From the NCBI GenBank assembly GCA_021513715.1, contig CP084167.1, positions 2,304,001 to 2,368,000 of the forward strand: a DNA stretch of 64,000 bases, in the 5' to 3' direction. The translations under genes and the position numbers were made by a program. This document shows, one piece after another, positions 4,059 to 64,000 of the stretch. This stretch comes from Candidatus Heimdallarchaeum endolithica (lineage in GTDB: Archaea; Asgardarchaeota; Heimdallarchaeia; Heimdallarchaeales; Heimdallarchaeaceae). A model generated the notes under the pieces. It was given only the letters and a program-made list of their open reading frames with translations. It was not told where the DNA came from and did no database searches. Each line of letters starts with the position of its first letter. The first letter of the stretch is position 1.

Positions 4059-4862
4059 ATGTCAAATCTATCGGAAAATGAGAAAAAAAAATACGTGCGA
4101 CAAATCATTTTGGATAATGTTGGAATTAGAGGACAAGAGAAATTAAAAGAATCTAAAATTTTAGTTGTAGGTTCCGGGGGATTGGGATCAAGTGTTCTTT
4201 ATTATTTAGCAAGTAGTGGTGTTGGGACATTAGGAATCATAGATAAAGATCTAGTTGAATATTCTAATTTAAATAGACAAATCATTCATTTTGAGAAAGA
4301 TGTTGGAAAATCAAAAACTCAGTCTGCTAAAGAGAAACTGTCTTTGTTAAACAAAGATATTACAATTAACACTTATCAATTTGAAATAAATTCTCTTAAT
4401 GCTGAATCGATAATTGCAGACTATGATTTTATTGTTGAAGCTAGCGATAATTTTGAAACAAAGTTTTTAGTAAATGATACTTGTGTAAAATTAGGTAAAG
4501 CTTTTACTATCGCTGGTGTAATGAAATTTGAAGGACAAATAATGACTGTTATTCCAAAGTTTTCTGCTTGCTATAGATGTGTGTTTAGTGAAATACCTGA
4601 ACCTGGAACATATCCTAATAGTTGTGAACTTGGTATCATGGGTACTACAGCAGGTTTTTTTGGTATAATTGAAGCAAATGAGGCTATTAAGTATATATTA
4701 TTTAATGATAGTGATTCAATTAACGACAAATTGCTTGTAAACAAAATCCTTTATGTTGATTTAGAATCCAATTTGTTCGACACTATTATTATTCAAAAGA
4801 ATGAAGAGTGTACTGCGTGTGAAAAAGCAAAAAAGCATAGATATTTCGAATCATTAACTTGA
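4059..4862 (+). CDS. ThiF/MoeB/E1-like adenylyltransferase (UbaA-like)
   Basis: YVRQIIL, VGSGGLGS, SNLNRQ, SDNF, CYRC and CTAC zinc pairs. Confidence 0.92.
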   Translation: MSNLSENEKKKYVRQIILDNVGIRGQEKLKESKILVVGSGGLGSSVLYYLASSGVGTLGIIDKDLVEYSNLNRQIIHFEKDVGKSKTQSAKEKLSLLNKDITINTYQFEINSLNAESIIADYDFIVEASDNFETKFLVNDTCVKLGKAFTIAGVMKFEGQIMTVIPKFSACYRCVFSEIPEPGTYPNSCELGIMGTTAGFFGIIEANEAIKYILFNDSDSINDKLLVNKILYVDLESNLFDTIIIQKNEECTACEKAKKHRYFESLT

Positions 4863-46502: not shown

Positions 46503-46663
46503 CACTTGAAAGACTGAGTGCGAAAAACTTACGTAAAAAATAAATCATTAAAACTCAAAGAAAAAATAAGAATTTCTTGAAGAAATCAGAAATTTTAAAA
46601 GAGAACGAGAGTAGGTCGACCAGAAACTGTTAAGTAACAGTAAAGTTGAAGTGAGGGTACAAA

Positions 46664-47992: not shown

Positions 47993-48156
47993 ATTTTATC
48001 CTATTTTTTTTCAAAATATATTTTTAATAAATGCTATTATGCCATAATAAGACAAAATAAATTGAAACGACAAAATAAGAAAGAAAAAAATAAAAGAAAA
48101 AAAACTTTAAAAACAAAGGAAAAATAGAAGAAACGTAAAAGGAAAACAAAAACATA

Positions 48157-48249
48157 GCCGCGATAGCTTAGTCGGTAGAGCATTCGGCTGTTAATCTTAA
48201 GATTTGAATGCACTACGGGTGTAAAAAGAGCAGCAACCGAAAGGCCGAA
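48157..48249 (+). tRNA. tRNA-Asn(GTT) with a 42-nt intron at 37/38, 3'-truncated in the T-stem
   Basis: GCCGCGA acceptor 5' strand; D-arm GCTT/GAGC; anticodon stem TTCGG/CCGAA; anticodon GTT at 48190-48192; intron 48194-48235 with BHB (CTGT/GCAG helix, TAA and CAA bulges, TCTT/AAGA). No TTCG loop or TCGCGGC follows. Confidence 0.88.
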
Positions 48250-48657
48250 TTTCCTATTTTGTGTTTTAAAAATATTTAACACATAAACCAATTTTTAGGT
48301 CGGGAAATGCATAAGCAAATCTGTAAATTTTTTTATAAAAAATAAAAAATCACGACCAATATTAAGGGTGGAGTTGTTAGGAATGGTTTGCTAAAAATCT
48401 AGTATATTGCAAATTCAATTAAAATGGTTTAATAACTGTCAAAAGATCTATTTTTTTTTGAGATAATGAATGTAATTTAACTTACTGTTCTTGTTTATTT
48501 AACCCTTATTTTTTTCCAAACAATTTCTTCATTTTTAGGTATTGTTTTATTTTGTAAAAAGAATTCATCTATGTATTCACACATTCTACACTTTTTGTTA
48601 CAATATTTCTTGTCTTTAATTCTTGGATATAATTGTTTTTCATATTTTAGTCTTTCA

Positions 48658-48674
48658 ACAAAGGATATAGTCTT
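48658..48674. repeat. left target-site duplication ACAAAGGATATAGTCTT (17 bp)
   Basis: Identical to 49685-49701. Confidence 0.9.
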
Positions 48675-49684
48675 TGTTTACTCAATAGACTTGGGTTACA
48701 CTTTTGGGTACTAGAGAAACATAGGGGTGATTCATAAATCTTTCTCCTGGGGTGAGGAAGTTAAGAGATTGGTGAGGACGACTAAAATTGTAGTAAGAGC
48801 GATAGTAGGAGAGGTCGGGGTTGCAGTATTTTAGACCTAATCTTTCCATCTCACGGATGATTGTCCCATGTAGTCTTTCTACTTTTCCACATGTTTCAGG
48901 GTGAAAAACTCTAGCTCTGATGTGCTTTATTCCTTCTGTTTGACACCAACGGGAGAAGGTACTTGTTCCTCCTCTAACGGAAGAGAAGAGTGCTCCATTG
49001 TCAGTAAGTATAGACTCGGGGTAACCGTACTCTTTTATTGCTTCCTCTAGCAAACTTATTATCTGCTCTTTTTTTGGTGCAAAAGGGTGGAATTCAGCTC
49101 CCAGACAGAATCGTGAGTGGTCGTCTATCAAGGTTATGAGGTGGAGATGTTGTCCCTGTTCTTCTACCCAGAATGGTCCTTTCACATCTATTTGCCAGAG
49201 TTCGTTAGGTTTTTGACGTTCAAAACTCTTGTATCGAGGTCTTTTCCTCTTTTTTCTATTAACCCATAAAGGAAGACCTAACTCTTTTATTACTTTCGTC
49301 ACTGTCGTCTGAGAGAGTGCTTTTCCTTCTCTCTTCAACAAATAAGCTATCTTCTCCACATTCATTCCTTGTTTTATTCTTAACTCCCTTATCCTCTCTT
49401 TTAACTCCTCATCTACTTTCCTGTGTATAGTTTTTGGTCTGGAAGATCTATCTTTCCACCATACTCCTTCAGGGTTCTCTCTGAACCTCTTCAACCACTT
49501 ATACACAAACTTCCTACTCACCATATACTTGTGAGCTACCTCTTTTATCTTCTCTCCTTCCAAAGCTTTTTTAACCACAATCTTTCTTAGTTTCTCCAGG
49601 TTACGTTCGTTTTTGTTCATAATATATCACTTACCCACGTAACCCACTTCTATTTATTTGTTACCAATGTGAGTTGAGTATACA
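48675..49684 (-). mobile_element. IS481-family insertion sequence, 1,010 bp
   Basis: TGT...ACA ends; imperfect IRs (TGTTTACTCAA versus reverse complement TGTATACTCAA); single transposase; 17-bp TSD. Confidence 0.92.
48682..49620 (-). CDS. IS481-family DDE transposase
   Basis: N-terminal HTH (VSRKFVYKWLKRF), PNELWQIDVK, IDDHSR, TDNG, GKVERLHGT, YNFSRPHQSL. Confidence 0.95.
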   Translation of the reverse strand: MNKNERNLEKLRKIVVKKALEGEKIKEVAHKYMVSRKFVYKWLKRFRENPEGVWWKDRSSRPKTIHRKVDEELKERIRELRIKQGMNVEKIAYLLKREGKALSQTTVTKVIKELGLPLWVNRKKRKRPRYKSFERQKPNELWQIDVKGPFWVEEQGQHLHLITLIDDHSRFCLGAEFHPFAPKKEQIISLLEEAIKEYGYPESILTDNGALFSSVRGGTSTFSRWCQTEGIKHIRARVFHPETCGKVERLHGTIIREMERLGLKYCNPDLSYYRSYYNFSRPHQSLNFLTPGERFMNHPYVSLVPKSVTQVY

Positions 49685-49701
49685 ACAAAGGATATAGTCT
49701 T
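49685..49701. repeat. right target-site duplication ACAAAGGATATAGTCTT (17 bp)
   Basis: Identical to 48658-48674. Confidence 0.9.
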
Positions 49702-50514
49702 AGTAATCCTTTTTAGTTCTATATCCTCCTCAGTAAGATCTAATGTTCTTCTTTTCTGTTTATCATTGTTGTTTAGGTACCACAGTTCAGGAATAATTTC
49801 GATATTAGGTTTCTTTATTCTAATGATTTCAGAGTAGATTAGCACTTGTCTTTTGTCTCTAGGCGATTCTTTTCCTGTTTTTAGTTCTATCACTCTTATT
49901 GCTGTTCGATCTACTGTCCAAGCTAAAATGTCTATTCGACCTGTTAAAAGAAATTTTTCTGATAATTCATACTCAATTTTGTATTCGGTTCCTATAACAA
50001 GAGAAATTAGTTTTCCTCTATTATTCTCTTCAACTAAAGTAGAACAAAACATAGCCAAAGTGCGTAAATTAAAATAAAGCTTATCGTCAAACTTTACTTC
50101 TTTTTCTCTTTCAATTATACAATCAAAGTCCTTCTCTCCATCAGGAAAGAAAAATCTTTCTGTCAACTCATATAAAGCGGTAAAAAAAGATTCTTTGACG
50201 GATAGTTTTTCGTGTATGTAAAAATGTTGTACTAAGTCGAAATTGCTTGATAAAACAGATTGTAGAAGTAGATGGTAAAAAGTTCATAGCTCCATAGATC
50301 TTGAAGAAGAAGCATACTCTCTCAATTTATTCATTTTAAGTAGAACTGCAAAATATGGTCTTATTGTACAAAAATCATCTTCAAGAACATCAGTAACGCT
50401 AATACTAACATGTTTTTGGAACATGATATTCACGCTAATCTTTAATCTTTTAATTAATTTATAAAAAAGAAAAAAACATAGTCAAAAGTAACACATCTTA
50501 TTTTTTTTATTATT

Positions 50515-51969
50515 ATGTTTATATATCGAAATGTTATTTTTGAATTTGAAATGGCTTCAAGAACACATATTCAAGAATATGAATCATGTATTGTTTTCCA
50601 GAAATTTATGATCGAAGAAAACATACTTGTTAATTTCTGTAAACATATCGATTTTGGCATAGATGGTGAGCTGGATATATTACAAGAAGAGCCAAGGGAT
50701 GATTTTTACGAAGAACGTAGAGCAGTAGATATAGATTTAAGGAAAAAGGCTTTTGTTCAACTCAAATCTAAAAGAGAAAAAAGTAGGGTAAATGAAGATG
50801 GAACTGTTTCATATAGCTTTAAAAAACGACATTTAAAACTATGGCAAAATTCGCCCATACCCGTTTTTGTTTTTTTGGTTTACCTTGATGACTCAAAAGA
50901 GATCTATTGGACATATGTTGATATTGACTTACAAATAGAAGAAGGGGAATCGGAATGCCAAAACCTTACTCTTGAAAAACTAGAAGGGGGATGTAGAAAT
51001 AAATTCAATAAGATAATTGAGGAGCATTATAAAAAAACAGGATACAAATATAATGTCTCAACAAAATTACCAATGTTTAGAGATTTTATTGAAAGGAGAA
51101 AGCAAGGTTTAGAACTAAGAAAAAGTTTGATTTTCAAGGAATTAAATCCAATAGAAGATAAAAAAGCTAAAATGTTAAGTCCTTTTCCTAAATCAGGATT
51201 AAGAAAAAAAATCTCATTCTCAGAATATGCCTTATCTATAGATGATTTCTATGAAAAAATAGATGACGATGAATACATTAATGAGTTTTTTAGCCGTAAA
51301 TCAAGGATAGAAAGCAATATTATTGAGAGTGTATATAAAGCAGAAGTAGCAAAGATAAAATATGATCTTGTAAATAATCACGAAACTTTTTTTGCTGATA
51401 GTTGGATTGAAATATTTGAAAATATAACAAAAATAACAGAGGAATATACAAGACCTATTTTGTTTATTAATAGTGAACTAAGAGATATTATTCGAGGGAT
51501 TCCTGCAGCAGATAGACCTAGTCTAGTAAATCAAGTTCTTCATAATTCAAAAGAAGATGCAATATCACATTCTCATTATGAAAACATAATAAATGGAAAA
51601 AATGTTTATTTCTATTTCTTTTATATTCCTAGACACTTAACTAAAAAGTTTCCTGTGTTAAACGATATTAAAATAATTATTTTAGATAGAGAAAAGGTAA
51701 AATATATTGTTAAAGAGCCATTAAGATTAGAATGGAGGACGATTACTAGGCCAGTTCAAGTTGATATTATCGATGGCGCAGCATATAAAGTTACAAAAAA
51801 AGAAGAAGAGTGGGATTGGTTTGACTTTACTTGTTATACTGTAGGAGAAATAAGAAATGAAGGACCAATAAAAATATACAAATTTTCCGAAGATGAGAAA
51901 AAGGAATTACAAGACTTTGAAGATAGACTAATAAAACTTACAAAATCAAGAAAAATTACCAAGGGATAA
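50515..51969 (+). CDS. DUF4365-type PD-(D/E)XK domain protein with unknown C-terminal region
   Basis: DFGIDGELDI...FVQLKS...HLKLW...PVFVFLV...IYW. Confidence 0.75.
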   Translation: MFIYRNVIFEFEMASRTHIQEYESCIVFQKFMIEENILVNFCKHIDFGIDGELDILQEEPRDDFYEERRAVDIDLRKKAFVQLKSKREKSRVNEDGTVSYSFKKRHLKLWQNSPIPVFVFLVYLDDSKEIYWTYVDIDLQIEEGESECQNLTLEKLEGGCRNKFNKIIEEHYKKTGYKYNVSTKLPMFRDFIERRKQGLELRKSLIFKELNPIEDKKAKMLSPFPKSGLRKKISFSEYALSIDDFYEKIDDDEYINEFFSRKSRIESNIIESVYKAEVAKIKYDLVNNHETFFADSWIEIFENITKITEEYTRPILFINSELRDIIRGIPAADRPSLVNQVLHNSKEDAISHSHYENIINGKNVYFYFFYIPRHLTKKFPVLNDIKIIILDREKVKYIVKEPLRLEWRTITRPVQVDIIDGAAYKVTKKEEEWDWFDFTCYTVGEIRNEGPIKIYKFSEDEKKELQDFEDRLIKLTKSRKITKG

Positions 51970-51990
51970 TCGCGTTTATTTTTTATTTAC

Positions 51991-52290
51991 TTATTCGTCT
52001 ATTATTTTTTGTATTTCTTGTATAAATTCTGCTACTTTCATTCCTTTTTCTGTTAGGCTAAAAACACGTTTATTATAAGGTGGTAAGTATTCCTCTTCTA
52101 TGAGTTCAAGGACGAGAAGTTTGTTAAGTGAAGTATAAACAGATGTTTGTGCTATACCAGGTATATTATCTATCAGTTGTGTGATCATTGCTTTTTTTTC
52201 AGATAATAGGTATAACAGTATCCTAAGAGCTCCTTTTTGTTCAAGCAAAGAAAGGGAACCTTCTCGTTCTCTCATTCTTCGGTATCCCAT
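51991..52290 (-). CDS. winged-HTH regulator (HxlR/MarR-like)
   Basis: LRILLYL...SVYTSLNKLLVLELIEE...FSLTEKGMKVA. Confidence 0.85.
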   Translation of the reverse strand: MGYRRMREREGSLSLLEQKGALRILLYLLSEKKAMITQLIDNIPGIAQTSVYTSLNKLLVLELIEEEYLPPYNKRVFSLTEKGMKVAEFIQEIQKIIDE

Positions 52291-52460
52291 ACCCTTAAAC
52301 TGTCTAAGAGCTAAAAAATATTCTTATACGCATAATGTATGCATATATACAAAGGTTTTATATATCGGTAGCCATATAATACTTATAGGTGGATAGTGAG
52401 CGACGGAAAAAAATGAAAACAACCTAAGGAGTGATGAAAAAAGAATGATGGGTCAAAGAT

Positions 52461-52754
52461 ATGAGAAGAAAAGAAGAAAAAAACGTATATACGCCTTCTT
52501 CTGTAGTCTGTTCCGCATATAAATATATAGGGGACAAAGAGTTAGGTGTTTTGTGGATAAGTATTCAACTAGAGGGTGTAAAGCCTGATTTTTATAGTTT
52601 TGTTAGTAGATCATTTATTGGAAAAAAGTTTCTTTTATTTTTTTCTGCCTTTATAAATTATTTTTATGATAATATTGTAAACAACAAAACAAGAGGAGGA
52701 AAGAGAAGGATTTCTTCACTTCAAAAAAGTGAAACCGTGTGGTGGAGTTTATGA
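52461..52754 (+). CDS. hypothetical protein
   Basis: 97-aa ORF overlapping the next start; no motif recognised. Confidence 0.35.
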   Translation: MRRKEEKNVYTPSSVVCSAYKYIGDKELGVLWISIQLEGVKPDFYSFVSRSFIGKKFLLFFSAFINYFYDNIVNNKTRGGKRRISSLQKSETVWWSL

Positions 52755-53923
52755 CTGTAAGTGAAAGGGGAAAGGATAAGTTTTTTTCAAATGTCTATTA
52801 TGATTTTAAAGGGGAAAAAAATCGACTCTCTACCGAAATAATTCCGTTTGAGTTTGAAGCAGTAATACGAGAGGAACATCTGATTACTGTTAAAGATATT
52901 AGAATAAAGGCAGGAATAAAATATCATCTGCATATTAAAAGTTTGGAGACAGATCAAAAATTACAAGGAGTAGACCTTTTAATTAGAAAACGTGGAGAGA
53001 AGATAGTTTTTACTTTGTCGCATCGAATGAAAAAACTGTTCAAAAAAGGAGAAAAAGTAAAGGTTAGTATCTTTTGTCCAACAGAGGAGTTTTACGGAAG
53101 AAAACAAAAAGAAGGAATAAGAGATGTATCCATCCACAACGATGAGATCTTGTGTATAGCTTTTATCTATCAAATGGGAGAAAATAAAGGACTAATCAGT
53201 CTCAATAGCGAAAATGAAGAGTATTTGTCAAAATTAGAAGGAATACAAGAGACTTTTCATATCTTGGATGATAGAATAATAAGGAGAGATGAGGAAGGAA
53301 ATGTCCCCTTTGAAGCTAAAAGTTACTCTAATTATGCAATAATAAGATACTACACGATAATGAACAGGTATGATTTCATAAAGAATCAAGAAAATCACTC
53401 TTCTGTTTATACTTATTTCGTAGGAGATGAAAAAATCCTTCCTACAGTAACATCCGTCAAAGCTTGTTTAGTGATAGTAATAAACAAGTCCTTGATTCCT
53501 ATATGTCTAGAAGAGAGAGTAAGAAAAGAAATAAACATGTTTCTGGACAAAAAAATGCCTTTATTTAAAATACAAGACCAACTTTATGAATTGAAAAGAG
53601 TAATTTTACAATATATTAGAGCGTATTATAGACCTATCATAGCAGAAGAGACGTACAACGAGTTCAACATTAAATCAATGATTTTTCATTTAAACCGCAA
53701 AACTTCTCCTGTATACAAAGCAATTATATCCCTCGTATCTTTTGATAACTACATCTCAGTAGAAAAACTGGTGAACTATGTAGAAGAGAAGTATAAAATA
53801 AAAGATAGACGTTACATCAGTGAATCGTTAACAGAACTGATAAATCTTGGAATTATAAAAAGAAAGGTTGAGGACGGAAAAGTAGGGGTAGGGGTTGTGA
53901 GATCATATGATGAAAAAAGATGA
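52739..53923 (+). CDS. hypothetical protein with C-terminal wHTH-like domain
   Basis: C-terminus ISVEKLVNYV...ISESLTELINLGII; overlaps the ATPase start, suggesting an operon. Confidence 0.7.
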   Translation: MVEFMTVSERGKDKFFSNVYYDFKGEKNRLSTEIIPFEFEAVIREEHLITVKDIRIKAGIKYHLHIKSLETDQKLQGVDLLIRKRGEKIVFTLSHRMKKLFKKGEKVKVSIFCPTEEFYGRKQKEGIRDVSIHNDEILCIAFIYQMGENKGLISLNSENEEYLSKLEGIQETFHILDDRIIRRDEEGNVPFEAKSYSNYAIIRYYTIMNRYDFIKNQENHSSVYTYFVGDEKILPTVTSVKACLVIVINKSLIPICLEERVRKEINMFLDKKMPLFKIQDQLYELKRVILQYIRAYYRPIIAEETYNEFNIKSMIFHLNRKTSPVYKAIISLVSFDNYISVEKLVNYVEEKYKIKDRRYISESLTELINLGIIKRKVEDGKVGVGVVRSYDEKR

Positions 53924-54707
53924 ACAAGGAAAAGTAGTGAGTTTTTTCAGTTTTTCAGGAGGAGTAGGTAAAACGACTTTGGTTGTTAACATTGCTAAAA
54001 TGTTAGCCGAACAAGGAAAGAAAATAATAGTGCTAGAACTAGAATTACTCTCACCTAAATACCAAACTATTTTTGGTTTTAATCCTGCGAAATCTATAGA
54101 TGAACTATATATGCAAAACTATAGAAACAATCTTGAACTAGAAACGGTTGATAGAATAATTAAGAAAAGTATAATTACAAACGATTATGGAGTAGATTTC
54201 ATTATCCCTACTGCTCCCACAACAATAGAAGATCTAATTAACAGAGATAGAGACTATAATCATAAAGATTTTGCAAACTTTATAAGAAATTTACTAGCTT
54301 ATCTGAGGAAGAAATACGAGCTAGTGTTGATAGACTCTCCAAGTATAACGAACACCGAAATAATGAGTGTTTTACTGCTATCAGATAAATTAGTTTATGT
54401 CTGTATTCCCCCTTTGGAAGATATATCTGAGGGAATAGAACAAATAAAAAAATTTCCAGAGAGTACATTCATCGATCCAATTGATGTGATAATAAACAAA
54501 GTACCAGTAGAAACAGAAAAAAAAAGACAAATATTGGAAAGAAAAATGAAAGAACGACTAAAGAAAGAAAAAATAAACAAAGTAAGAATAGTAGAATTAT
54601 CACTAAATTATATAAAAGAGAATGTAAAAGAAAGGAGAATATACATAGAAAAAGAAAAGGAAAAAAACATTTATCAAACACTGCTAAACTACAGTAAAGA
54701 ATTATAA
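53907..54707 (+). CDS. MinD/ParA-family ATPase with atypical motifs
   Basis: VVSFFSFSGGVGKTT, NIAKMLA, YELVLIDSP, IINKV. Confidence 0.88.
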   Translation: MMKKDEQGKVVSFFSFSGGVGKTTLVVNIAKMLAEQGKKIIVLELELLSPKYQTIFGFNPAKSIDELYMQNYRNNLELETVDRIIKKSIITNDYGVDFIIPTAPTTIEDLINRDRDYNHKDFANFIRNLLAYLRKKYELVLIDSPSITNTEIMSVLLLSDKLVYVCIPPLEDISEGIEQIKKFPESTFIDPIDVIINKVPVETEKKRQILERKMKERLKKEKINKVRIVELSLNYIKENVKERRIYIEKEKEKNIYQTLLNYSKEL

Positions 54708-54755
54708 TATCAAAATTAAAAGAAAAGAAAAATAAAGTCTATCCCTACCGCCAAA

Positions 54756-54786
54756 ACTATCACTATCATTATCACTATCATTTTCA
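54756..54786. repeat. degenerate hexamer microsatellite (ACTATC)x5
   Basis: actatc actatc attatc actatc attttc between convergent genes. Confidence 0.6.
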
Positions 54787-54860
54787 TTTGAACTAGCAAA
54801 AAAGAAACAAAACAAAACGAAAAGGAAAAAAAACAAAAGAATTGGAAATAAGGAAATTTA

Positions 54861-56243
54861 CTATTTTCTCTTATTTTTTAAAAGAAAGAGGAGATTTTTA
54901 ACCGAGAAAATAGAAACGAAGGATAAAGGAGTGAGAACGATTATCAAGTACATTATTTGGTTTTTGATTAAGGGATTGGTATGGTTATAAAATTCTTCAA
55001 GATTGGTTAAACCATCACCATCAAGGTCAAGATAAGAGTCATTAGTTAAAGGGTCAGAACCATAATGAACTTCCCAACCGTCAGGTAAAAGGTCTCCATC
55101 CGAATCAGGATTCCAGGGGTCAGTACCATAAAGATGATCTTCAAGATAATCTAGTAGCATGTCTTCGTCGAAATCGCTTCCACGAGGAAAAGGGTCAAAA
55201 GCTTTAGCTTTTCCATCGATAGGGTAAGGTTCAGAGCCATCGGTATCTGACCAATAGTTACCAATAGAATAGACGGGGTCAAACCAGGTGTTATTCGCTC
55301 CATCATCAAAAGCTTGAGAAAGATTATTACCTTTATTGTTCTTGAAAAAAACGTTACGTGAGATAAAGTTGTTAGAAGCAGCTTTGTGAACAAACAGTCC
55401 ATACTCACTGTTATTGAACAAAACATTAGAAGAAAGGTGATTGTTAGAACCACCTAAAAATATCCCACTTTTTCTGCTCTCGGAAATAACGTTATCGGTA
55501 ACGGAGTTGTTATCCCCACTTACGCTTATTCCTTTATAAAAAGTATAAGTAATAGTATTATTTGTTATGATGTTATTATGTCCTGAACCATAAATTCCAT
55601 GTGCTCCACTATACGATATGTAGTTATTAGTAATAATGTTAAAACAACTTTCAGTCATATCAATACTTTTTCCACTATTATGAGAAATATTATTACCACT
55701 AACCAAATTGTGAGAACCGTGTTGGATTCTTATTGCTCCCCGAGTATGAGTTATAAAATTGTTAATAACGACGTTATCAGAACTGTATAAACGTATTAAT
55801 TCGCGAGAATAAGTTCGATTGGTTCCACCAACAAGAGTGGAACCCTCAAGGTGAAGATGGGCGTTATCCCATGCTCCAATATCCCAAGGACTGTCAGTGT
55901 AAGTTAGAATGGTTGTATCATAGATCTCTAAAGAAGAATTGTCTATAGCATAAATACTTAGAGAACCCACTCTATCATGTTCAATAACAATAAAACAATT
56001 ACGAAGAATAAGAGAGCCTTCGTCCTTGATAAGAACTCTGTTGATAAGTTTAATAAACTCGTTTTCAACTACAGTAGGTTCAGTAATGTTCCAAATACCT
56101 TCCGGAGGAGGAAAGGTTCCTGAGCTAGATGCAGAAGAAGTAACTAGAGGACTAAAAGTAGGTGAAAAGAGCAGGAGAGAAGAAAAAATCACAAGTAAAA
56201 GCACGAACGAATTATTTTTCCTTTTTGTTAGAATAAAAAGCAT
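54861..56243 (-). CDS. cell-surface protein: right-handed beta-helix (NosD/CASH) plus DxDxDG Ca-binding repeats and a C-terminal TM
   Basis: Signal peptide; GIx[ILV]xGxxNxIxxNxI repeats; GNYWSD; DSDGDLLPDGWE and DLDGDGLTNLEE; TM followed by KNKRK. Confidence 0.85.
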   Translation of the reverse strand: MLFILTKRKNNSFVLLLVIFSSLLLFSPTFSPLVTSSASSSGTFPPPEGIWNITEPTVVENEFIKLINRVLIKDEGSLILRNCFIVIEHDRVGSLSIYAIDNSSLEIYDTTILTYTDSPWDIGAWDNAHLHLEGSTLVGGTNRTYSRELIRLYSSDNVVINNFITHTRGAIRIQHGSHNLVSGNNISHNSGKSIDMTESCFNIITNNYISYSGAHGIYGSGHNNIITNNTITYTFYKGISVSGDNNSVTDNVISESRKSGIFLGGSNNHLSSNVLFNNSEYGLFVHKAASNNFISRNVFFKNNKGNNLSQAFDDGANNTWFDPVYSIGNYWSDTDGSEPYPIDGKAKAFDPFPRGSDFDEDMLLDYLEDHLYGTDPWNPDSDGDLLPDGWEVHYGSDPLTNDSYLDLDGDGLTNLEEFYNHTNPLIKNQIMYLIIVLTPLSFVSIFSVKNLLFLLKNKRK

Positions 56244-56378
56244 GAATAAATAACCCTTTTTTTTATTAATAAATTTTTGTAAATTATTGCTTTAACTGTT
56301 ATTTAATGTGATAGAATAGTAAGTTAAAGATACATTATAAAAGAAATAAATAAAGGATAGCAAATTGCTACTGTGAAA

Positions 56379-56466
56379 AAACGTCTATAAAAACTATCGA
56401 CATTTTTGAGAAACGTCTATAAAAACTATCGACATTTTTGAGAAACGTCTATAAAAACTATCGACA
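56379..56466. repeat. 32-bp direct tandem repeat AAACGTCTATAAAAACTATCGACATTTTTGAG, about 2.75 copies
   Basis: Exact copies at 56379-56410 and 56411-56442, partial copy 56443-56466; no spacers. Confidence 0.95.
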
Positions 56467-56946
56467 CAAATTCAATCTATGACAAAAGATGTCTTTTAAA
56501 ATCATTTATAATGTGGTAGAAAAGTCTCCTGGGTTTAAATACTACCAATAGTTTTATATATCAGTAATTGACCAAAAAGAAAAAACTTCACACGATACTA
56601 AAAAATGCATTTTTATTTAATTAAAAGGCTGAAGAATAAGAAGTGTGATATATATACACTGTTGGATAAAAACAACTTACGGGTTATAAATTCAAACAGA
56701 AAATAAAGAGAATGAGAAAAATTTACAGGTATTTATAAATACCATATTGATTTAAATAGAAAAAGAGATAGTCACATTTTATGAGTCAATGTAGTAAAAA
56801 ATTGTTCAACCCCAAGTACCCGAACAAAACTATGTTGACTCATAAATCCTTGAAAAACTCAAATTCAAGGATAACCCAGAAAGAAAAAATTGACTCATGT
56901 TGCTTTTTAGCAAACTTTTTTTCAACAGCAGATCTGGGTAAAAAAA

Positions 56947-56972
56947 GGAAAGTGGAGATTTTTTCACTTTCC
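56947..56972. promoter_or_regulatory. inverted repeat GGAAAGTG-N10-CACTTTCC upstream of the giant ORF
   Basis: Perfect 8-bp arms ending 80 bp before the ATG at 57052. Confidence 0.45.
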
Positions 56973-57051
56973 ACACTCTCCTTTAAGTTTATTTTTAAGC
57001 ATAATAGTGCTTCTTTTTGTTCTCTCTCAAAGAAAATAAAGGTGGATAAGA

Positions 57052-60000
57052 ATGGAGAAAATAAAGATAAAGAAAAAGTTAACAATTTATTCAATTTTAA
57101 TAATATTACTATTCTCTAATTTAAGTGGATTGAATTTTAAGTTTTTACAAGCAGAAAATGGAGACCAGAGTCCTCCATCTATACTCAGAGTTACACAGTT
57201 TCCTGAAATTCCTACCCAATTCGATGGAGTAGTAGTTTATGTAGAAGTGGAAGATGAAACAGGGTTTAGTTCAATATATTTAATGTATGAGAGAAACAAT
57301 AACTTAACATCCATACCAATGAAGTATTTACCCAATTATTATGGAAATGGAACATGTTTTTATGCTTCTCTTCCTTCTTTTTCAGCAGGAACTAGAATAA
57401 CTTATTTTATCGAAGTGACTGATTCGAGTGAGAATCAGAATATTGCACACTCACTAAAATATGATTATGTGGTGGTGAGTGATGGAATACCAAAAATAAA
57501 GTTATTAAACGAACCAAAATTTCTGTATTCGGAAGAAGAATATACTTTCCAGTTTACAATTTATGATGAGGATAATATCTCTCTTCAAGATACGGGAATT
57601 GATCCACCTTTATTATATTACAGAACAGAAAGAGTAGAAGGAACACAACAAGTAGTTTATAATTCCACGTCAGAAGTATTTGAAAGCGTTTTACCTTCCG
57701 TTAGTTTACTAGATGGAGAAATAAAGGAAGGAGAAAAGATAGAGGTGTGGGTAGGAGCTTATGATAAAAGTCCTGCACACCAGTATGGAGAGAGCCAACA
57801 TTTGCAGTTACCAGTCATTAACGAGAAACCTTACATTTACGGTGTGGATAGATACCCATATATTCCTTTGTATAATGAAAGTTTCAATTTAACCACAACA
57901 ATCTATTATAGAGAAAATATAGGTATGAATATCACGCAAGTATCGGCAACTATAAACCGATATGATGAGGTTACACAAAAAATTACAAAGCAAAGTTATA
58001 TTTTAACCCAAAGTGAATATTCAAAATTTGTATTTACAGGAATAATAGAACCGATTGGATATATAGATAATATAGAACTAAAAATAAATTGTAAGTATAC
58101 TTCAGATTACCAAATAGAAGAAGCAGAAGTAGAAAAACAAGAAAAAAGTTTTAGCGTAAGAGATTGCGAAGCTCCAGCGATATTAGAAAGTGGATTTAGC
58201 AGCGGAGTAACAACATTAAAAGAAGGAGAAGAAGTAAAAGTCTATGCCAATGTATTAGATCGTTTGAATACAAAAGATGTCACTGCAATAGTTACTGAAG
58301 AGTATAAATCAGGATTGCAACTTATTCGTTCATCAAAGGAATATTTTCAAAAATTGAGTTACTATGGAGATGATGGAATAAGTTTTATTCAACAGATGAG
58401 TATTGATCAGAGTATAAGTGGAGATTTTTATTTTGATGGATTAGTTCTAAAAGAAGAATATGTGAGTAAAGTTAGAAAAGAAGCAGCAAGCGAAACATTA
58501 TCTATTTACGCAGTAGAAGGAAAAAATGAATTATTTATAAAAATCATAAATCCTGAAGGGTTTTTACCATTAAACTATAACCAATTGGTTATACAAGCAC
58601 GTGCTATAGGACAAGATATTCTTTTAGCAGGAGTATATGCGGATTTAGGAGAAACAGTAATTTGGAATGAAACAGTAGGAAATTACGTTTACGATAATGT
58701 GTTGCCTATAGACAAGTTTTTTTCTACAGATGAATACGGGACAGCTTGTTTATACAATCTTCAAAATATCGAAGATATTACTAATTCAATATGGCTAAAA
58801 TTCGTTCCTGCTGATGGAGGAAATTTTAGTTCATCTGATGGTTTAAGTATTGATAATATTAGATTGTTCAGTATAAATACTCTAAATGGTGAAAGAATAG
58901 ACTGTTATCATCAAGAAATAAATCATGATTTTGTTGAATATTACGGTTATTATCAAGCTAAAAAGGTTGATCAATTAATAACTTTCTATATCCAAGCGAG
59001 CGACGGAATAAATATCCAAACCCAAAATAATGAGGAAACAATAATAGTAACTGATGGTAAACCTCCTACATTTGCCATTAATCAAATATCGGGAGTGGAT
59101 ATAGAGGATACTGAACTTAAATTTAGTATGGCTATAACTGATTATTCTATAATAGATCCAACTGATGCATTAAATGTCTGTTTTCATTACAAGATTAACG
59201 GATTAGAAGAAATAATTGTAAACTTAACAGTTGCTAATAACTGGGATGAAAAAGGAAAAGTGTGGGTGTATAATTTTAACAATACAACAATATTGAATTT
59301 CAATGATATGTGGGAATATTGGTTCAGTGCAGAAGATCCTTGTGGTAATCGTGGAGAAAGTAAACATTACTCTTTTGTTGTAGAAGAAAATAGTGCACCT
59401 ACAATATCTTTAACTTGTCAAACAGTTACATATAATGGAGAAGAAAAAACAGTTGTTGAACCCGCAGGGGCAGAAATAGGAATATCTGGAGAATATTTAG
59501 ACATAAACATGGATATAACAGAGAATGAAGGAGGAAGTGGAATAAAACTTATCCAGCTATATTGGTATACTTCTTCTCACGAATCCAATTGCTGGAGTTC
59601 AGAAGTATATAGTTTTATGTCTGTCTATTCCATCACTGATTTGACTGTAGCAGAAAAAATGATACATAATTTCGATAAAGTAGGTATACTTTATTATTAT
59701 GCACAAGTAATTGATCATGCAGGAAACATTTATCAAACACCAGAATATCAAGTACAGTTAATAGATAATGTAAAGCCTATAATAAAAATCAACTCTGAAT
59801 ATAATAGCCCAAATGGGTTGTATAATGTCGACAATTCGTATGGTGATATAAGCTATAATGAAGATGCATATATCACTTTAGAAATAGAAGATGCATCAAC
59901 TATAACTAACCTAATTTTGGAGGCAGAAACATCACAAGGTACCTTTGCAGGAGAAGTTATATGGGACGAATATTATCATGATTGGACATTACAACATTAT

Positions 60001-63000
60001 CAGATTAAAGTAAATAAAGCGTGGGAAGTAGGAGAAAATATCAATTTAAAGATTACAGCGGTAGATTCTTTTGGAAATGCACTAAACAATTTTCTATTAG
60101 GTACAGAATACATTATAGATAAACTTCCTCCTGTTTTACTCTCCTATTCGGATAATAATCCTGAACTAGGGGGAGGAGAAATAACTATTTCTTACCAAGT
60201 TAAGGATATAGGAAGTGTTGTAGCTTACCTTTATTATAATTTTAATTCGTCAGTGGAAACACCCTCAACTGAAAACGCTACTCTTTCTGATTTTCAAGTG
60301 GCTGTAATGGAACTTGAATCAATAGACGATACAAAATACGCACCTTATATTGAATGGTCATTTACCAAAACATTATCTCTACCATTAGAAATATTATATC
60401 CTGCAGTATCAATATATTTTGTAGCATTAGACGAATACAATAACAGTTTAACATGTATTGGAGGAAAAGCATATTCCCTACCTAATTTTGATATAGAAAC
60501 AAGTATTTACACTCCCAAGATTGAATCATATAAAAAACTCGCTGATAAATTTGGAGATTTTAGAGAATACCCCAGAGATAATGTTGATAAAAGATGGGTG
60601 GGAGAAACAGAAACAACGATAATTTCCTATGACTTCAGTGTAGAAGAAAATTTTTCTATAAACTATGCTCATCCTTATGGAGATAGATTTGCAAAAAGCG
60701 TATTGGAGTTTTATACTAGGGGTTGCCAAAATAGTTACTACGCACTTGGAGAACCAGATGGAAACATGGCGGAGGTAGGAGAATATATACGTTTAGACAT
60801 GGAGTATGAAGGAAAAATATTGAGTAAGCCTGGAGATGGAGAAGATTTTAAAGTTTATGGGGGAGCAGGACAATATCAAGTAATATTAATAAAAAATGCA
60901 TTGTCTCCCTTGCCAGCATATTATCATCTAGGAACAGGAACGGGTATAACTTCTTGGGACTTAGAAGCAGTGGGTTTAGATGAAGTAAGATATATAGAAA
61001 TATGGAATGAAAACACTGATAACTCTCCAGTTTATATTGATGCAATAGAAGCAATACATTGTGATGGGGATAGTTTCACCGGTCAAGAATGGCAAAATGC
61101 AGAAGAAAATAACGGAATTCCTGCAAATATAGTAGATAAGCAACTTTCAATGTATTACCATGGTTATAATGGAAACAATGAAATATTAGAAACCACGGTC
61201 AATCCTGAGTTTTACGACTACTTGTACATACCTCTATGGATGAATACCTATCTCCCTCAAATAAAACTGTCAATCAACTTTGTACAACAAGCTTATTCTG
61301 TTGATCTTTTTGCAGTAGATAATATAGCAAAGGATTCTTTGATGCAAAATGGAAATTATGTGCATCTAGGAAAAATAGATGGCTCTGGAGTGTATTATTT
61401 TGCATGTTCATACCCTAATAGATACACAGGTGTGTTATTCAAAATAAGACATAGCTGGGAAAGAATAACGAGCGAACTTGTTCAAATGTACAATTATGAA
61501 TTTACGCTTGATTATATTAAATTATTTGGAATTTTTTATAGAATAGAAGAATTATCAGGACCAAATTATTCAGAATTTGAAAAAATGTATGAAAAAAATA
61601 GCGGGAGCAATCCTGATCCTCTATTTTTACAAATGGAAAATTATAATGGTGAAAATCAGAAAAGTGCAAGTATAGATAATATCCATGAGGAAATATGGGC
61701 TGATGCAATTAATGAATTGGAAATTTTTGGTGGTACAAAAGGAGAATGGTTTTATCTCGCAATAGATAGAGCAAGTGAGCAACCTAATAATCCCATTGTT
61801 ACGGATGTTCAAGTTGTTTATGTAGACGGAGAAAGATTATATTGGAAAAATGCATATAATAACCAAAAAAGAATAGCCTTAATTTTTGACACTTTAGAAT
61901 TCTATGAAACTTATGGAGTGAGTAATTACTTTTACATTATGTCAAATGCCACAATTGAGGGAAAAGGATTTACAGCTTACTATTATTCTTTTTATTCTAA
62001 TAATGAACTGTTAGAAGGGTTCAACTATGAAGGAATACCTCAGGCAGATTTCAGGACAGGTGATGCACTTAACCCCACTCTTGAAGATACAAGTTACGAT
62101 TCTCCATGGTGGAATAACCCATTAGATTTTACCTCTCTCAATTCGGATAAACACGGGTGTATAGTCGTACAAATCCAAGAAAATCAGTCGGGTAATATTG
62201 ATTATCTAAATTTTGAAGGATATTACTCTTTCTTATTGGATGATCTTTATCTTGGTGGAGAAGAATTACATACACATAGAATCGGTTATCTCCCTATACA
62301 TATAGAAGGATTTAGCTACTATAGTGGAATAATGGACGGTTTTTATATTACTGACGATATAAAACCCAAATTAAGATTGCAGACATCTATAGCAAATCTT
62401 TATTCTCACCCCTTAGAATTAAGCTATGTTCTTCCTCTCGAGTTTATTGATTATGGAGAAGGGTGGTTACCCAGAGAAATAAAAGATTATGATACTAGTT
62501 ACTTAGATAATGAAAGATATAGATGGTTAGAGGTAGAATTTCACAATAAGATTCAATATGCTATTACAGAACTAAATAATGATTCATGCACACTTTTTCA
62601 GAAAGTGTTCGATACTCAATCAAATGAGATTTATTTTGAAGAGAGCTATACTCATTATAAAAGTAAAAATATAGATAATGAACTCACAAAGAGTTTCTCT
62701 CATATAATTCCTGAATCAGAAGCTATTTTTCCAAGTTCATATCAAGATTTTACTTACAAGTCAAGCTTAAACTATGTAGGAAATATTTCTTCTTCAGATT
62801 ATGTAGAAGTTGATTCACCAGAGATTAAAATAGGAAATACAAAAAAAGAAGATTCAAATATAAATGAACAATATGAAAGAGCGAAAGATGAATACAGATT
62901 TTATTATTTCTTGCCATATGAAAGCGATACAAATTCTATTGCTTTTGTGAATATTTCATCTAAAACTATAAGATTTGATGATGAAGCTTGTACTCCAAGT

Positions 63001-64000
63001 AATATAATAGACAAGATAAACATAAAAGCTCATTTATCTCTCGATATAGGGGAAAGCTTAGAACAAGTTTCAATTTACAAGATATACGCAATAGATATTG
63101 AAAATAAAGAACATGTTTTATACTCATCCAATTATGATGAATACTATTTCAATTATACAAGCGATTTAAATTATGAAATAGACTTAAATGTTTCAGCAGA
63201 TTCAGCGTATTTCTACATAATAAAAGAATTTAAAGTAGAATTTAAAATAAAAACCTTTACAGCAAGTGCTCAAGATGTAGTAGAAATATGTTTTGCAGAG
63301 TTGAAAGTTATCACTGATGAATTTTTACCCTATGATGTCATCTATCCAAAGGATACATCACCACCTTCAATCGATCTTATTCCTGTCTCTCCTCTGAGTC
63401 TAGAAAATAACATTTGGACGTTTACATACTCCGCAGAAGATTATTCAGGATTGAAAAATAATCAGTTCCAATATCGTATAAAATATGATTGGGGAGGAAT
63501 AGATGATCAAGGTATAGTATATTCTAAATCCGATAGTTATTCAGAATACATGGTTTTTAATCTTGGAGATGAATTCAATATTTTTAGCCCTAGTCCTCAA
63601 ATTGAGGGGGATGTTACCTATTATGCAAAGCGACTATGGCTGGAAATTTATGCTGTGGATGGTTCAATATGGGAAAATGAATATTTCTATGAAAAAACAT
63701 GGCAGATAGATGATGGGATCAGTCCTTGGATAGAACAACAATTTAACTATCTTATTGTGCAAATGTACAATGATAATCAACTTATCTGGACAGAAGCGAA
63801 AGATATTGCTGGAGTAAATACAGTTGAACTCATAATAGAAAATATTGAAGATTTTCATCATAACATCTATCAAATCAATGATATTTACACCTTAAACAAA
63901 ATTAACAATAGATGGTATTTAGGAGATGATTTAACTCCATTTAGTTTTTACAAATATGGAGAAGAGAAAATCCTACCTTACAAAGTAAATTACTATTATA
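57052..64000 (+). CDS. giant secreted/surface protein, more than 2,316 aa, 3' end outside the window (not in ORF track)
   Basis: AGGTGG SD then ATG 57052: MEKIKIKKKLTIYSILIILLFSNLSG (signal peptide). The frame read open wherever translated, including the last line (...EEKILPYKVNYYY), and the track reports no closed ORF in this frame. Recurrent DxxPPxI Ig-like domain starts; many NxS/T sequons. Confidence 0.92.
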   Translation, partial: MEKIKIKKKLTIYSILIILLFSNLSGLNFKFLQAENGDQSPPSILRVTQFPEIPTQFDGVVVYVEVEDETGFSSIYLMYERNNNLTSIPMKYLPNYYGNGTCFYASLPSFSAGTRITYFIEVTDSSENQNIAHSLKYDYVVVSDGIPKIKLLNEPKFLYSEEEYTFQFTIYDEDNISLQDTGIDPPLLYYRTERVEGTQQVVYNSTSEVFESVLPSVSLLDGEIKEGEKIEVWVGAYDKSPAHQYGESQHLQLPVINEKPYIYGVDRYPYIPLYNESFNLTTTIYYRENIGMNITQVSATINRYDEVTQKITKQSYILTQSEYSKFVFTGIIEPIGYIDNIELKINCKYTSDYQIEEAEVEKQEKSFSVRDCEAPAILESGFSSGVTTLKEGEEVKVYANVLDRLNTKDVTAIVTEEYKSGLQLIRSSKEYFQKLSYYGDDGISFIQQMSIDQSISGDFYFDGLVLKEEYVSKVRKEAASETLSIYAVEGKNELFIKIINPEGFLPLNYNQLVIQARAIGQDILLAGVYADLGETVIWNETVGNYVYDNVLPIDKFFSTDEYGTACLYNLQNIEDITNSIWLKFVPADGGNFSSSDGLSIDNIRLFSINTLNGERIDCYHQEINHDFVEYYGYYQAKKVDQLITFYIQASDGINIQTQNNEETIIVTDGKPPTFAINQISGVDIEDTELKFSMAITDYSIIDPTDALNVCFHYKINGLEEIIVNLTVANNWDEKGKVWVYNFNNTTILNFNDMWEYWFSAEDPCGNRGESKHYSFVVEENSAPTISLTCQTVTYNGEEKTVVEPAGAEIGISGEYLDINMDITENEGGSGIKLIQLYWYTSSHESNCWSSEVYSFMSVYSITDLTVAEKMIHNFDKVGILYYYAQVIDHAGNIYQTPEYQVQLIDNVKPIIKINSEYNSPNGLYNVDNSYGDISYNEDAYITLEIEDASTITNLILEAETSQGTFAGEVIWDEYYHDWTLQHYQIKVNKAWEVGENINLKITAVDSFGNALNNFLLGTEYIIDKLPPVLLSYSDNNPELGGGEITISYQVKDIGSVVAYLYYNFNSSVETPSTENATLSDFQVAVMELESIDDTKYAPYIEWSFTKTLSLPLEILYPAVSIYFVALDEYNNSLTCIGGKAYSLPNFDIETSIYTPKIESYKKLADKFGDFREYPRDNVDKRWVGETETTIISYDFSVEENFSINYAHPYGDRFAKSVLEFYTRGCQNSYYALGEPDGNMAEVGEYIRLDMEYEGKILSKPGDGEDFKVYGGAGQYQVILIKNALSPLPAYYHLGTGTGITSWDLEAVGLDEVRYIEIWNENTDNSPVYIDAIEAIHCDGDSFTGQEWQNAEENNGIPANIVDKQLSMYYHGYNGNNEILETTVNPEFYDYLYIPLWMNTYLPQIKLSINFVQQAYSVDLFAVDNIAKDSLMQNGNYVHLGKIDGSGVYYFACSYPNRYTGVLFKIRHSWERITSELVQMYNYEFTLDYIKLFGIFYRIEELSGPNYSEFEKMYEKNSGSNPDPLFLQMENYNGENQKSASIDNIHEEIWADAINELEIFGGTKGEWFYLAIDRASEQPNNPIVTDVQVVYVDGERLYWKNAYNNQKRIALIFDTLEFYETYGVSNYFYIMSNATIEGKGFTAYYYSFYSNNELLEGFNYEGIPQADFRTGDALNPTLEDTSYDSPWWNNPLDFTSLNSDKHGCIVVQIQENQSGNIDYLNFEGYYSFLLDDLYLGGEELHTHRIGYLPIHIEGFSYYSGIMDGFYITDDIKPKLRLQTSIANLYSHPLELSYVLPLEFIDYGEGWLPREIKDYDTSYLDNERYRWLEVEFHNKIQYAITELNNDSCTLFQKVFDTQSNEIYFEESYTHYKSKNIDNELTKSFSHIIPESEAIFPSSYQDFTYKSSLNYVGNISSSDYVEVDSPEIKIGNTKKEDSNINEQYERAKDEYRFYYFLPYESDTNSIAFVNISSKTIRFDDEACTPSNIIDKINIKAHLSLDIGESLEQVSIYKIYAIDIENKEHVLYSSNYDEYYFNYTSDLNYEIDLNVSADSAYFYIIKEFKVEFKIKTFTASAQDVVEICFAELKVITDEFLPYDVIYPKDTSPPSIDLIPVSPLSLENNIWTFTYSAEDYSGLKNNQFQYRIKYDWGGIDDQGIVYSKSDSYSEYMVFNLGDEFNIFSPSPQIEGDVTYYAKRLWLEIYAVDGSIWENEYFYEKTWQIDDGISPWIEQQFNYLIVQMYNDNQLIWTEAKDIAGVNTVELIIENIEDFHHNIYQINDIYTLNKINNRWYLGDDLTPFSFYKYGEEKILPYKVNYYY

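Follow-up and report, generated by a model that had tools for sequence, protein, structure and literature searches.

The closest described systems are the aloposons, which the text of Wu et al. 2022 (PMC8813620) terms transposons and characterizes by tandem giant proteins of 3,000–6,000 amino acids (aa), a tRNA directly downstream, and four common upstream genes that include MinD/ParA. The same text presents Aloposon2 of H. endolithica and Aloposon3 of H. aukensis as one conserved element at two tRNA sites. Here we consider a stretch of 64,000 nucleotides of Candidatus Heimdallarchaeum endolithica (contig CP084167.1, bases 2,304,001–2,368,000 of the genome; hereafter the window), the last 16 kb of which had been read in a preliminary description as the left end of an aloposon or a relative. 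We consider it very likely that these 16 kb are the left part of Aloposon2, a non-autonomous mobile island found at tRNA genes, a judgement that covers identity, boundaries, and mobility jointly.

Coordinates follow window numbering, which is simply continued beyond 64,000. The compared sequences were the H. endolithica PR6 genome, the sister genome H. aukensis PM71, conspecific metagenome contigs, and one other genus of the family. The island extends from 48,248 to about 86,608 (~38 kb), has both giants, Otus and Ephialtes, inside it, and comprises or adjoins the following features (wHTH: winged helix-turn-helix):

48059–48249, plus strand: left arm of an inverted repeat, consisting of the native tRNA-Asn upstream region and the 5' part of the tRNA with intron (48157–48247); 88% identical over 194 bp to 86608–86415.
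48248–48403, no strand: element-specific left-end spacer, matching nothing significantly in the rest of the genome or in the compared loci.
48498–50433, minus strand: Cas4/AddB-like PD-(D/E)XK nuclease pseudogene, with a TGA at codon 50 and split by IS481.
48675–49684, minus strand: IS481-family host element (transposase 48682–49620), a recent passenger insertion with a 17-bp target duplication.
50515–51969, plus strand: DUF4365 restriction-like nuclease fusion, 484 aa, cargo (Pfam E=6e-12; PADLOC REase model 5e-8).
51991–52290, minus strand: HxlR-type wHTH regulator (E=3.5e-7), kept in all three elements of the genome.
52461–52754, plus strand: doubtful 97-aa open reading frame, with no protein homologue in other aloposons.
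52739–53923, plus strand: 394-aa protein with, in the predicted structure, an N-terminal beta domain, a longin fold (residues 135–298), and a C-terminal winged helix.
53907–54707, plus strand: degenerate MinD/ParA ATPase (AAA_31/ParA E=9e-15).
54861–56243, minus strand: beta-helix/TSP3 surface protein (E=7e-20), with near-copies at tRNA-Pro(TGG) and near tRNA-Leu(TAG).
56379–56466, no strand: 32-bp tandem repeat, 2.8 exact copies (1.8 copies in H. aukensis and two contigs).
57052–69729, plus strand: Otus, an open reading frame of 4,225 aa, with its first 2,316 codons in the window.
69732–86357, plus strand: Ephialtes, an open reading frame of 5,541 aa, beyond the window and 2 bp after Otus.
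86390–86608, minus strand: right arm of the inverted repeat, beyond the window, consisting of an intact tRNA-Asn(GTT) of the b allele and its upstream region.

The preliminary description had the core genes end at a truncated tRNA-Asn, and we find the 5' part of this gene from 48157 to a stop at 48246–48247. Its nuclease pseudogene (Cas4-like, with one in-frame TGA and the insertion), IS481 element, DUF4365 gene, wHTH gene, operon ending in MinD/ParA, beta-helix surface gene, and 32-bp tandem repeats are confirmed with the extents and scores listed above, and its reading frame of more than 6.9 kb stays open from 57052 through 69729. It had centered the island on one giant surface-protein gene: the giant reading frame stands, but there are two such genes. 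Extending the sequence rightwards, as it had proposed, brought in the end of the Otus frame and a far junction with an intact, inverted tRNA-Asn.

The locus agrees with the published element in every respect that we compared. Giants of 4,225 and 5,541 aa lie in tandem, and the 3' end of tRNA-Asn is 32 bp past the Ephialtes stop. The nuclease (a pseudogene here), wHTH, longin-wHTH, and MinD genes are common to HeimV2 and Aloposon1, the other two elements of PR6, and they appear to be the four shared genes drawn in PMC8813620. The H. aukensis partner, Aloposon3, is 91.4% identical over 36.8 kb and lies between tRNA-Gly(GCC) and tRNA-Gly(TCC); HeimV2 and Aloposon1 have no counterpart at the orthologous H. 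aukensis sites. The element therefore almost certainly matches published Aloposon2, as far as the text of PMC8813620 describes it. The GC content of the island equals that of the host and does not mark it. No relatives of the element were found in an IMG/VR search, and none of the 250 CRISPR spacers of PR6 matches this element or tRNA-Asn; the preliminary description had suggested looking for such matches among Asgard spacers.

The empty tRNA-Asn site that the preliminary description had proposed seeking does exist: nothing is inserted there in H. aukensis, nor in the conspecific contigs L033, L099, L100, and L101, whose left flank is 97% identical to PR6. Homologues of the longin-wHTH gene also stand after tRNA-Ala and near the 23S rRNA in conspecific contigs, and PR6 lacks them there. 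Judged from these genome comparisons, the element is mobile, being present or absent within the species and located at different tRNA sites in different genomes. The same evidence bears on the suggestion that the locus is one of the host's own gene clusters, passed down vertically, or that assembly created it. The host-like GC content and a relative in another genus of the family speak for such a reading. However, the site is empty in five sequences, the tRNA sites differ between two species, and a matching break occurs in an independent read assembly, where a Logan contig of run SRR15988960 breaks off 31 bases inside the stretch over which the repeat arms are identical. Such a break is expected if both arms are present in the reads and supports two real copies of the repeat. 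We give vertical inheritance or artefact practically no credence, as the empty alleles already refute it on comparative grounds; the preliminary description had named vertical synteny without an empty site, a second boundary, or a recombinase as fatal to its reading, and we do see empty sites and a second boundary.

Traces at the Gly site of PR6 add to the history of the element. This site holds a 1.5-kb scar consisting of an intact nuclease gene and the start of the DUF4365 gene, 96% identical to Aloposon3, like the host flanks, and the right joint of the scar is the point where the Asn copy ceases to match Aloposon3. The nuclease of the Asn copy is only 90–93% identical to those of Aloposon3 and the scar, which suggests that the Asn copy is a mosaic or an independent arrival rather than a simple cut-and-paste of the Gly copy. 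The tRNA at the H. aukensis Gly site still lies in its native direction.

Which enzyme might move the island is less apparent. The preliminary description had expected an integrase or transposase on extension, and we found none belonging to the element. A PF00589 tyrosine recombinase search across the genome gave a single match, at 29.7 kb, outside the element. IS481 as the element's own transposase was rejected: it belongs to a host family with 25 near-full copies in the genome, five of them identical, with long 16–17-bp target duplications, and it is absent from Aloposon3. Thus the only transposase on the island is that of a host insertion sequence, and the target carries a ~29-bp deletion, neither of which fits an autonomous transposon. 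Integrase-type tRNA islands usually leave a direct 3' att repeat. No direct 3' repeat is present at the Asn or Gly elements; there is no tyrosine recombinase in the element, and its repeat is inverted. The sole conserved DNA-processing gene among aloposons is the Cas4/AddB-like nuclease, of which intact versions of 305–306 aa occur in HeimV2, Aloposon3, and the Gly-site scar.

The two ends of the island form an inverted repeat of ~190 bp that spans promoter and tRNA-Asn. The left arm, which is orthologous to the intact tRNA-Asn gene in H. aukensis and the four contigs, is the native gene, cut after tRNA position 48/49 at the start of the T-arm; it has lost its last ~29 bp (T-arm and acceptor 3' strand). 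Host sequence restarts 2 bp past the old CCA, outside the inverted right arm. ARAGORN detected no intact tRNA within the 64-kb window, and the sole intact Asn gene found in the genome is the minus-strand tRNA-Asn(GTT) of 86390–86507, which contains an intron. It folds as a cloverleaf, and its stem changes are compensatory. Two tRNA-Asn alleles, a and b, are each found at empty sites. The right arm carries b, and the left arm is an a/b recombinant, which indicates homologous recombination across this locus between strains. That the right-hand allele is specific to the element was considered and rejected, the b allele being present at empty sites (L101, one base different). The empty site of L099 bears a recombinant tRNA-Asn allele with A7 opposite G66, a mismatched acceptor stem, which could be real or due to chimeric assembly. 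From the geometry of the repeat, homologous recombination between the inverted arms would flip the island and could not excise it, so that the island would be locked to an essential gene.

How could such ends arise? We tentatively suggest, giving it somewhat less than an even chance, that the element moves as a linear piece whose end is a captured promoter-tRNA module. This piece would be joined in where the cognate tRNA gene is broken, the candidate for end processing being the Cas4-like exonuclease, and would later spread between strains through homologous recombination in the flanks. Reverse insertion would give the pattern seen at Asn and Lys, and forward insertion would collapse by recombination into the Gly pattern. 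The Lys case is tRNA-Lys(TTT): by comparison with H. aukensis, the gene and its upstream region are turned round, and they lie beside a longin-wHTH remnant (genome 2,516,250–2,517,600).

Alternatively, the island could have entered at the 3' end of the tRNA by ordinary insertion through an integrase acting in trans; the inverted duplication would then stem from an accidental template switch that came later and had no connection with the insertion. Classical direct att repeats do occur at tRNA-Pro(TGG) and tRNA-Leu(TAG). At the former, a small insertion (genome 2,090,066–2,092,461) carries an 85–90% copy of the beta-helix gene and the 3' part of MinD between 39-bp direct repeats; because this is a piece of this very element, we hold an integrase in trans plus accident to be as possible as the linear-piece model. 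The native orientation of the Gly-site tRNA also suits it. Yet the Asn and Gly elements lack a direct 3' repeat, and the second inverted tRNA, at Lys, again at an aloposon remnant, makes a one-off accident less likely. Another small insertion (genome 2,087,031–2,088,934) holds a further 85–90% copy of the beta-helix gene, and a truncated 198-aa MinD was found again in several metagenome assemblies.

Three points weigh against our account of the island as a whole. The name Aloposon2 was assigned from the text of PMC8813620, its figure aside. The nuclease at the Asn site is dead, and this copy is therefore probably immobile. Finally, the other genus has a block (G002:C7 18,929–51,053, L038–L040) of MinD, a protease-like gene, a split Otus, and a 5,235-aa Ephialtes; the 70-kb contig that holds it is devoid of tRNA genes, and a longin gene was not detected. 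A homologue of the DUF4365 protein lies at the end of the same contig.

Some observations on the tRNA genes stand apart from these arguments. The divergence of tRNAs between PR6 and H. aukensis is bimodal: 26 pairs differ by 0–4 bases, and the Asn, Gly(TCC), Met(CAT), Ile, His, Cys, Phe, Tyr, Ser(GCT), Pro(GGG), and Lys(TTT) tRNAs by 5–26 or more, with many compensatory stem changes. Such recoded tRNAs make up 5 of the 7 adjoining aloposons or remnants and 6 of the 30 others (Fisher p=0.016, a post hoc comparison of non-independent genes). Compared with its H. aukensis counterpart, tRNA-Lys(TTT) is recoded, and a T-loop intron seems to have been acquired by both Lys genes. A one-spacer CRISPR mini-array (genome 2,117,969–2,118,063) of the type I-B-like island lies beside tRNA-Cys (2,118,222–2,118,297). 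Of the 36 bases of its spacer, 33 agree with the tRNA-Cys allele of H. aukensis, where the 5' flank is CCA, as it also is at the site that another mini-array spacer targets. The tRNA-Cys allele of PR6 itself has 15 differences, among them the CCA flank and the first seed base. This is a candidate case of CRISPR-driven replacement or homing of a tRNA. An inverted tRNA-Cys fragment, taken for a second inverted remnant, proved to be a CRISPR spacer and was discarded. A further mini-array spacer (genome 2,085,679–2,085,770) has a 33/36 match to an island at tRNA-Leu(TAG) of H. aukensis. A RAGATH-30 (Rfam) candidate at 46560 was also set aside, its score being below gathering and its position inside a dispersed repeat.

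Turning to the giants, Otus begins with a signal segment, continues as an acidic body, and closes at its C-terminus with a hydrophobic segment and a basic tail, features that are clearer in its paralogues. Searches of Pfam, NCBIfam, and PDB gave no match for Otus or Ephialtes, and for an Ig-like nature of Otus there were weak matches only (Pfam E=0.046, PDB E=0.48). Ephialtes consists of a conserved exported body, a conserved hydrophobic helical block near residues 3,870–4,100, and a hypervariable tail of 1,350 aa. Between H. endolithica and H. aukensis, identity is 87–100% up to residue ~4,150 and 46–77% after 4,200, and in a third allele the break falls at this point too (~4,150–4,200). The four Ephialtes paralogues (Aloposon2, HeimV2, Aloposon1, and the other genus) have the helical block in common; their tails, of 1,300–1,600 aa, are neutral, helix-rich, and mutually unrelated. 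These tails contain 5 N-x-S/T sequons where 44 are expected (0.11 of expected). Open reading frames without membrane segments give 0.94–1.08 of expected irrespective of helix content, and the tail value is below all 20,000 resamplings of cytoplasmic-like frames, the lowest of which was at least 0.42. Orphan tail fragments lie at genome 1,899,004–1,905,509 and 1,204,882–1,205,304, their settings being the spc operon and next to tRNA-Pro(GGG); these may equally be decayed insertions. In the Ephialtes of HeimV2 (genome 2,207,504–2,223,484), a PD-(D/E)xK-like motif can be seen by eye near the C-terminus, with no profile match.

Sequon avoidance suggests that the tail passes the glycosylation machinery and yet must stay bare, as would a domain threaded into another cell. 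It is tempting to speculate, at not quite even odds, that Otus serves as a membrane-anchored stalk and that Ephialtes is exported and would deliver a polymorphic C-terminal effector into neighbouring cells via its conserved hydrophobic helices. The pairing of a conserved exported N-terminus with a variable C-terminus and the orphan C-terminal modules are consistent with a polymorphic toxin. Several results count against an effector: no tail has a toxin domain recognized by the sequence profiles of Pfam, PHROG, PADLOC, or NCBIfam; Ephialtes is followed by just 32 bp and then the tRNA, with no immunity gene; and the tails of the three close alleles are homologous (46–77%), not swapped cassettes.

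The preliminary description had called the giant an adhesin or surface-coat protein, a label that fits Otus but fits Ephialtes, with its variable, sequon-poor tail, poorly. That both giants are plain adhesins or surface-coat proteins, with an Ephialtes tail that is cytoplasmic or surface-exposed and drifts or diversifies to escape viruses, seems to us somewhat unlikely. Their signal peptides and acidic beta-rich bodies would suit this role, as would the hydrophobic segment if it is a true membrane anchor, and the missing toxin motif and immunity gene would need no explanation. However, a cytoplasmic tail should carry sequons at chance level, and the sharp conservation break after a helical block kept in all paralogues, the unrelated tails, and the orphan fragments are not what plain adhesins would be expected to show.

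An improbable alternative is that the giants are the element's own transfer machine, a cell bridge or fusion device whose contacts spread the island, with the tail serving host range or the handling of DNA. Within the genus the element moves widely even though no genes for conjugation, capsid, or integrase were found, and a neutral, helical tail would be in keeping with this role. Then again, the giants resemble no fusogen or transfer protein of solved structure, and hypervariability at the tip is unusual for transfer machines, which tend to be conserved.

Upstream of the giants, the 394-aa protein was modelled with AlphaFold2 (AF2) from a six-sequence alignment (predicted local distance difference test, pLDDT, 62). 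In this model, residues 135–298 have the longin alpha/beta topology: their best alignment is to a Lokiarchaeota longin domain (VIA Z 10.9, root-mean-square deviation 2.8, 129 residues), and Lst4 longin gives Z 9.2. Foldseek placed GATOR1/SEA chains at the top of its matches, with sub-threshold E values of about 2e-3. Residues 306–390 are predicted to be a winged helix, and the N-terminal beta domain is AbrB-like by eye only. This longin-wHTH protein is nearly confined to Heimdallarchaeum. Its gene is overlapped by MinD/ParA, in which the signature Lys is replaced by Ser or Glu in every aloposon copy. Tentatively, and at less than even odds, we suggest that the wHTH, longin-wHTH, and degenerate MinD proteins may form a DNA-binding or positioning module. 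For a partition system, the signature Lys is missing and the partner of MinD is the longin-wHTH protein; the 32-bp repeat is limited to the Aloposon2/3 type and absent from other aloposons, which leaves a partition role for MinD and longin-wHTH unproven. Among the cargo, the DUF4365 gene possibly has a defence function, to judge from its profile matches; an HK97-like reading of its C-terminus found no support in the low-confidence predicted model.

Taken to its full extent, our reading would make aloposons integrase-free elements that take a whole promoter-tRNA module as their end, destroy and supplant the essential cognate tRNA gene of the host, and propagate a contact-dependent effector system of two proteins, its polymorphic tails unglycosylated, with longin-MinD alongside; that is, a new tRNA-linked mobility and a first Asgard polymorphic toxin machine. 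We think this combination rather unlikely. The exact ends, empty alleles, Ephialtes junction, and longin domain nevertheless make aloposon movement and the function of the giants concretely testable. Should the tail prove to be a delivered effector, prokaryotes closely related to eukaryotes would compete in a contact-dependent way with machines of 5,000 residues, and the longin fold, if real, would be a eukaryote-signature fold travelling on the Asgard mobilome.

Compared with what has been described, the element itself is already published: in genome, twin giants, downstream tRNA, upstream MinD/ParA, and a partner at another tRNA in H. aukensis, we find no difference from Aloposon2/3 as given in the text of PMC8813620. 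The inverted tRNA capture, the lack of an own recombinase, the longin fold, and the polymorphic sequon-poor tail are absent from its main text, which makes no mention of inverted ends, Cas4, longin, Asn, or toxin, and our literature searches did not find these four additions elsewhere; in the literature searched, aloposons come up in one further study, a paper with its preprint. HeimV2 and Aloposon1, in the same genome, have homologous nuclease, wHTH, longin-wHTH, MinD, and giants. They differ in having a subtilase-like gene before Otus, where Aloposon2 has the beta-helix gene, and in their other cargo, unrelated Ephialtes tails, and location upstream of tRNA promoters; Aloposon1 also has a ~48-bp direct repeat, unlike the inverted ends of Aloposon2.

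Like tRNA-targeting integrative elements of the SSV/pNOB8 type, which use a tyrosine integrase, Aloposon2 inserts in a tRNA gene with a functional tRNA kept; unlike them, it has no integrase, its repeat is inverted and spans the 5' part and promoter, and the 3' end of the target is lost. Residues 135–298 of the longin-wHTH protein share their predicted fold with longin/uDENN domains (Lokiarchaeota Roadblock-Longin 8yqg, Lst4, and GATOR1 chains), at ~9% identity, with a fusion to a winged helix and with a MinD-type ATPase rather than a small GTPase as the likely partner. Ephialtes, with a tail of 1,300–1,600 aa, no recognized toxin domain, no adjacent immunity gene, and no sequence similarity, is unlike polymorphic toxins of the CdiA, Rhs, and MafB type (PMC6393860 and general knowledge), yet it shares with them a large, exported, conserved body, a conserved junction, a variable C-terminus, and orphan C-terminal fragments.

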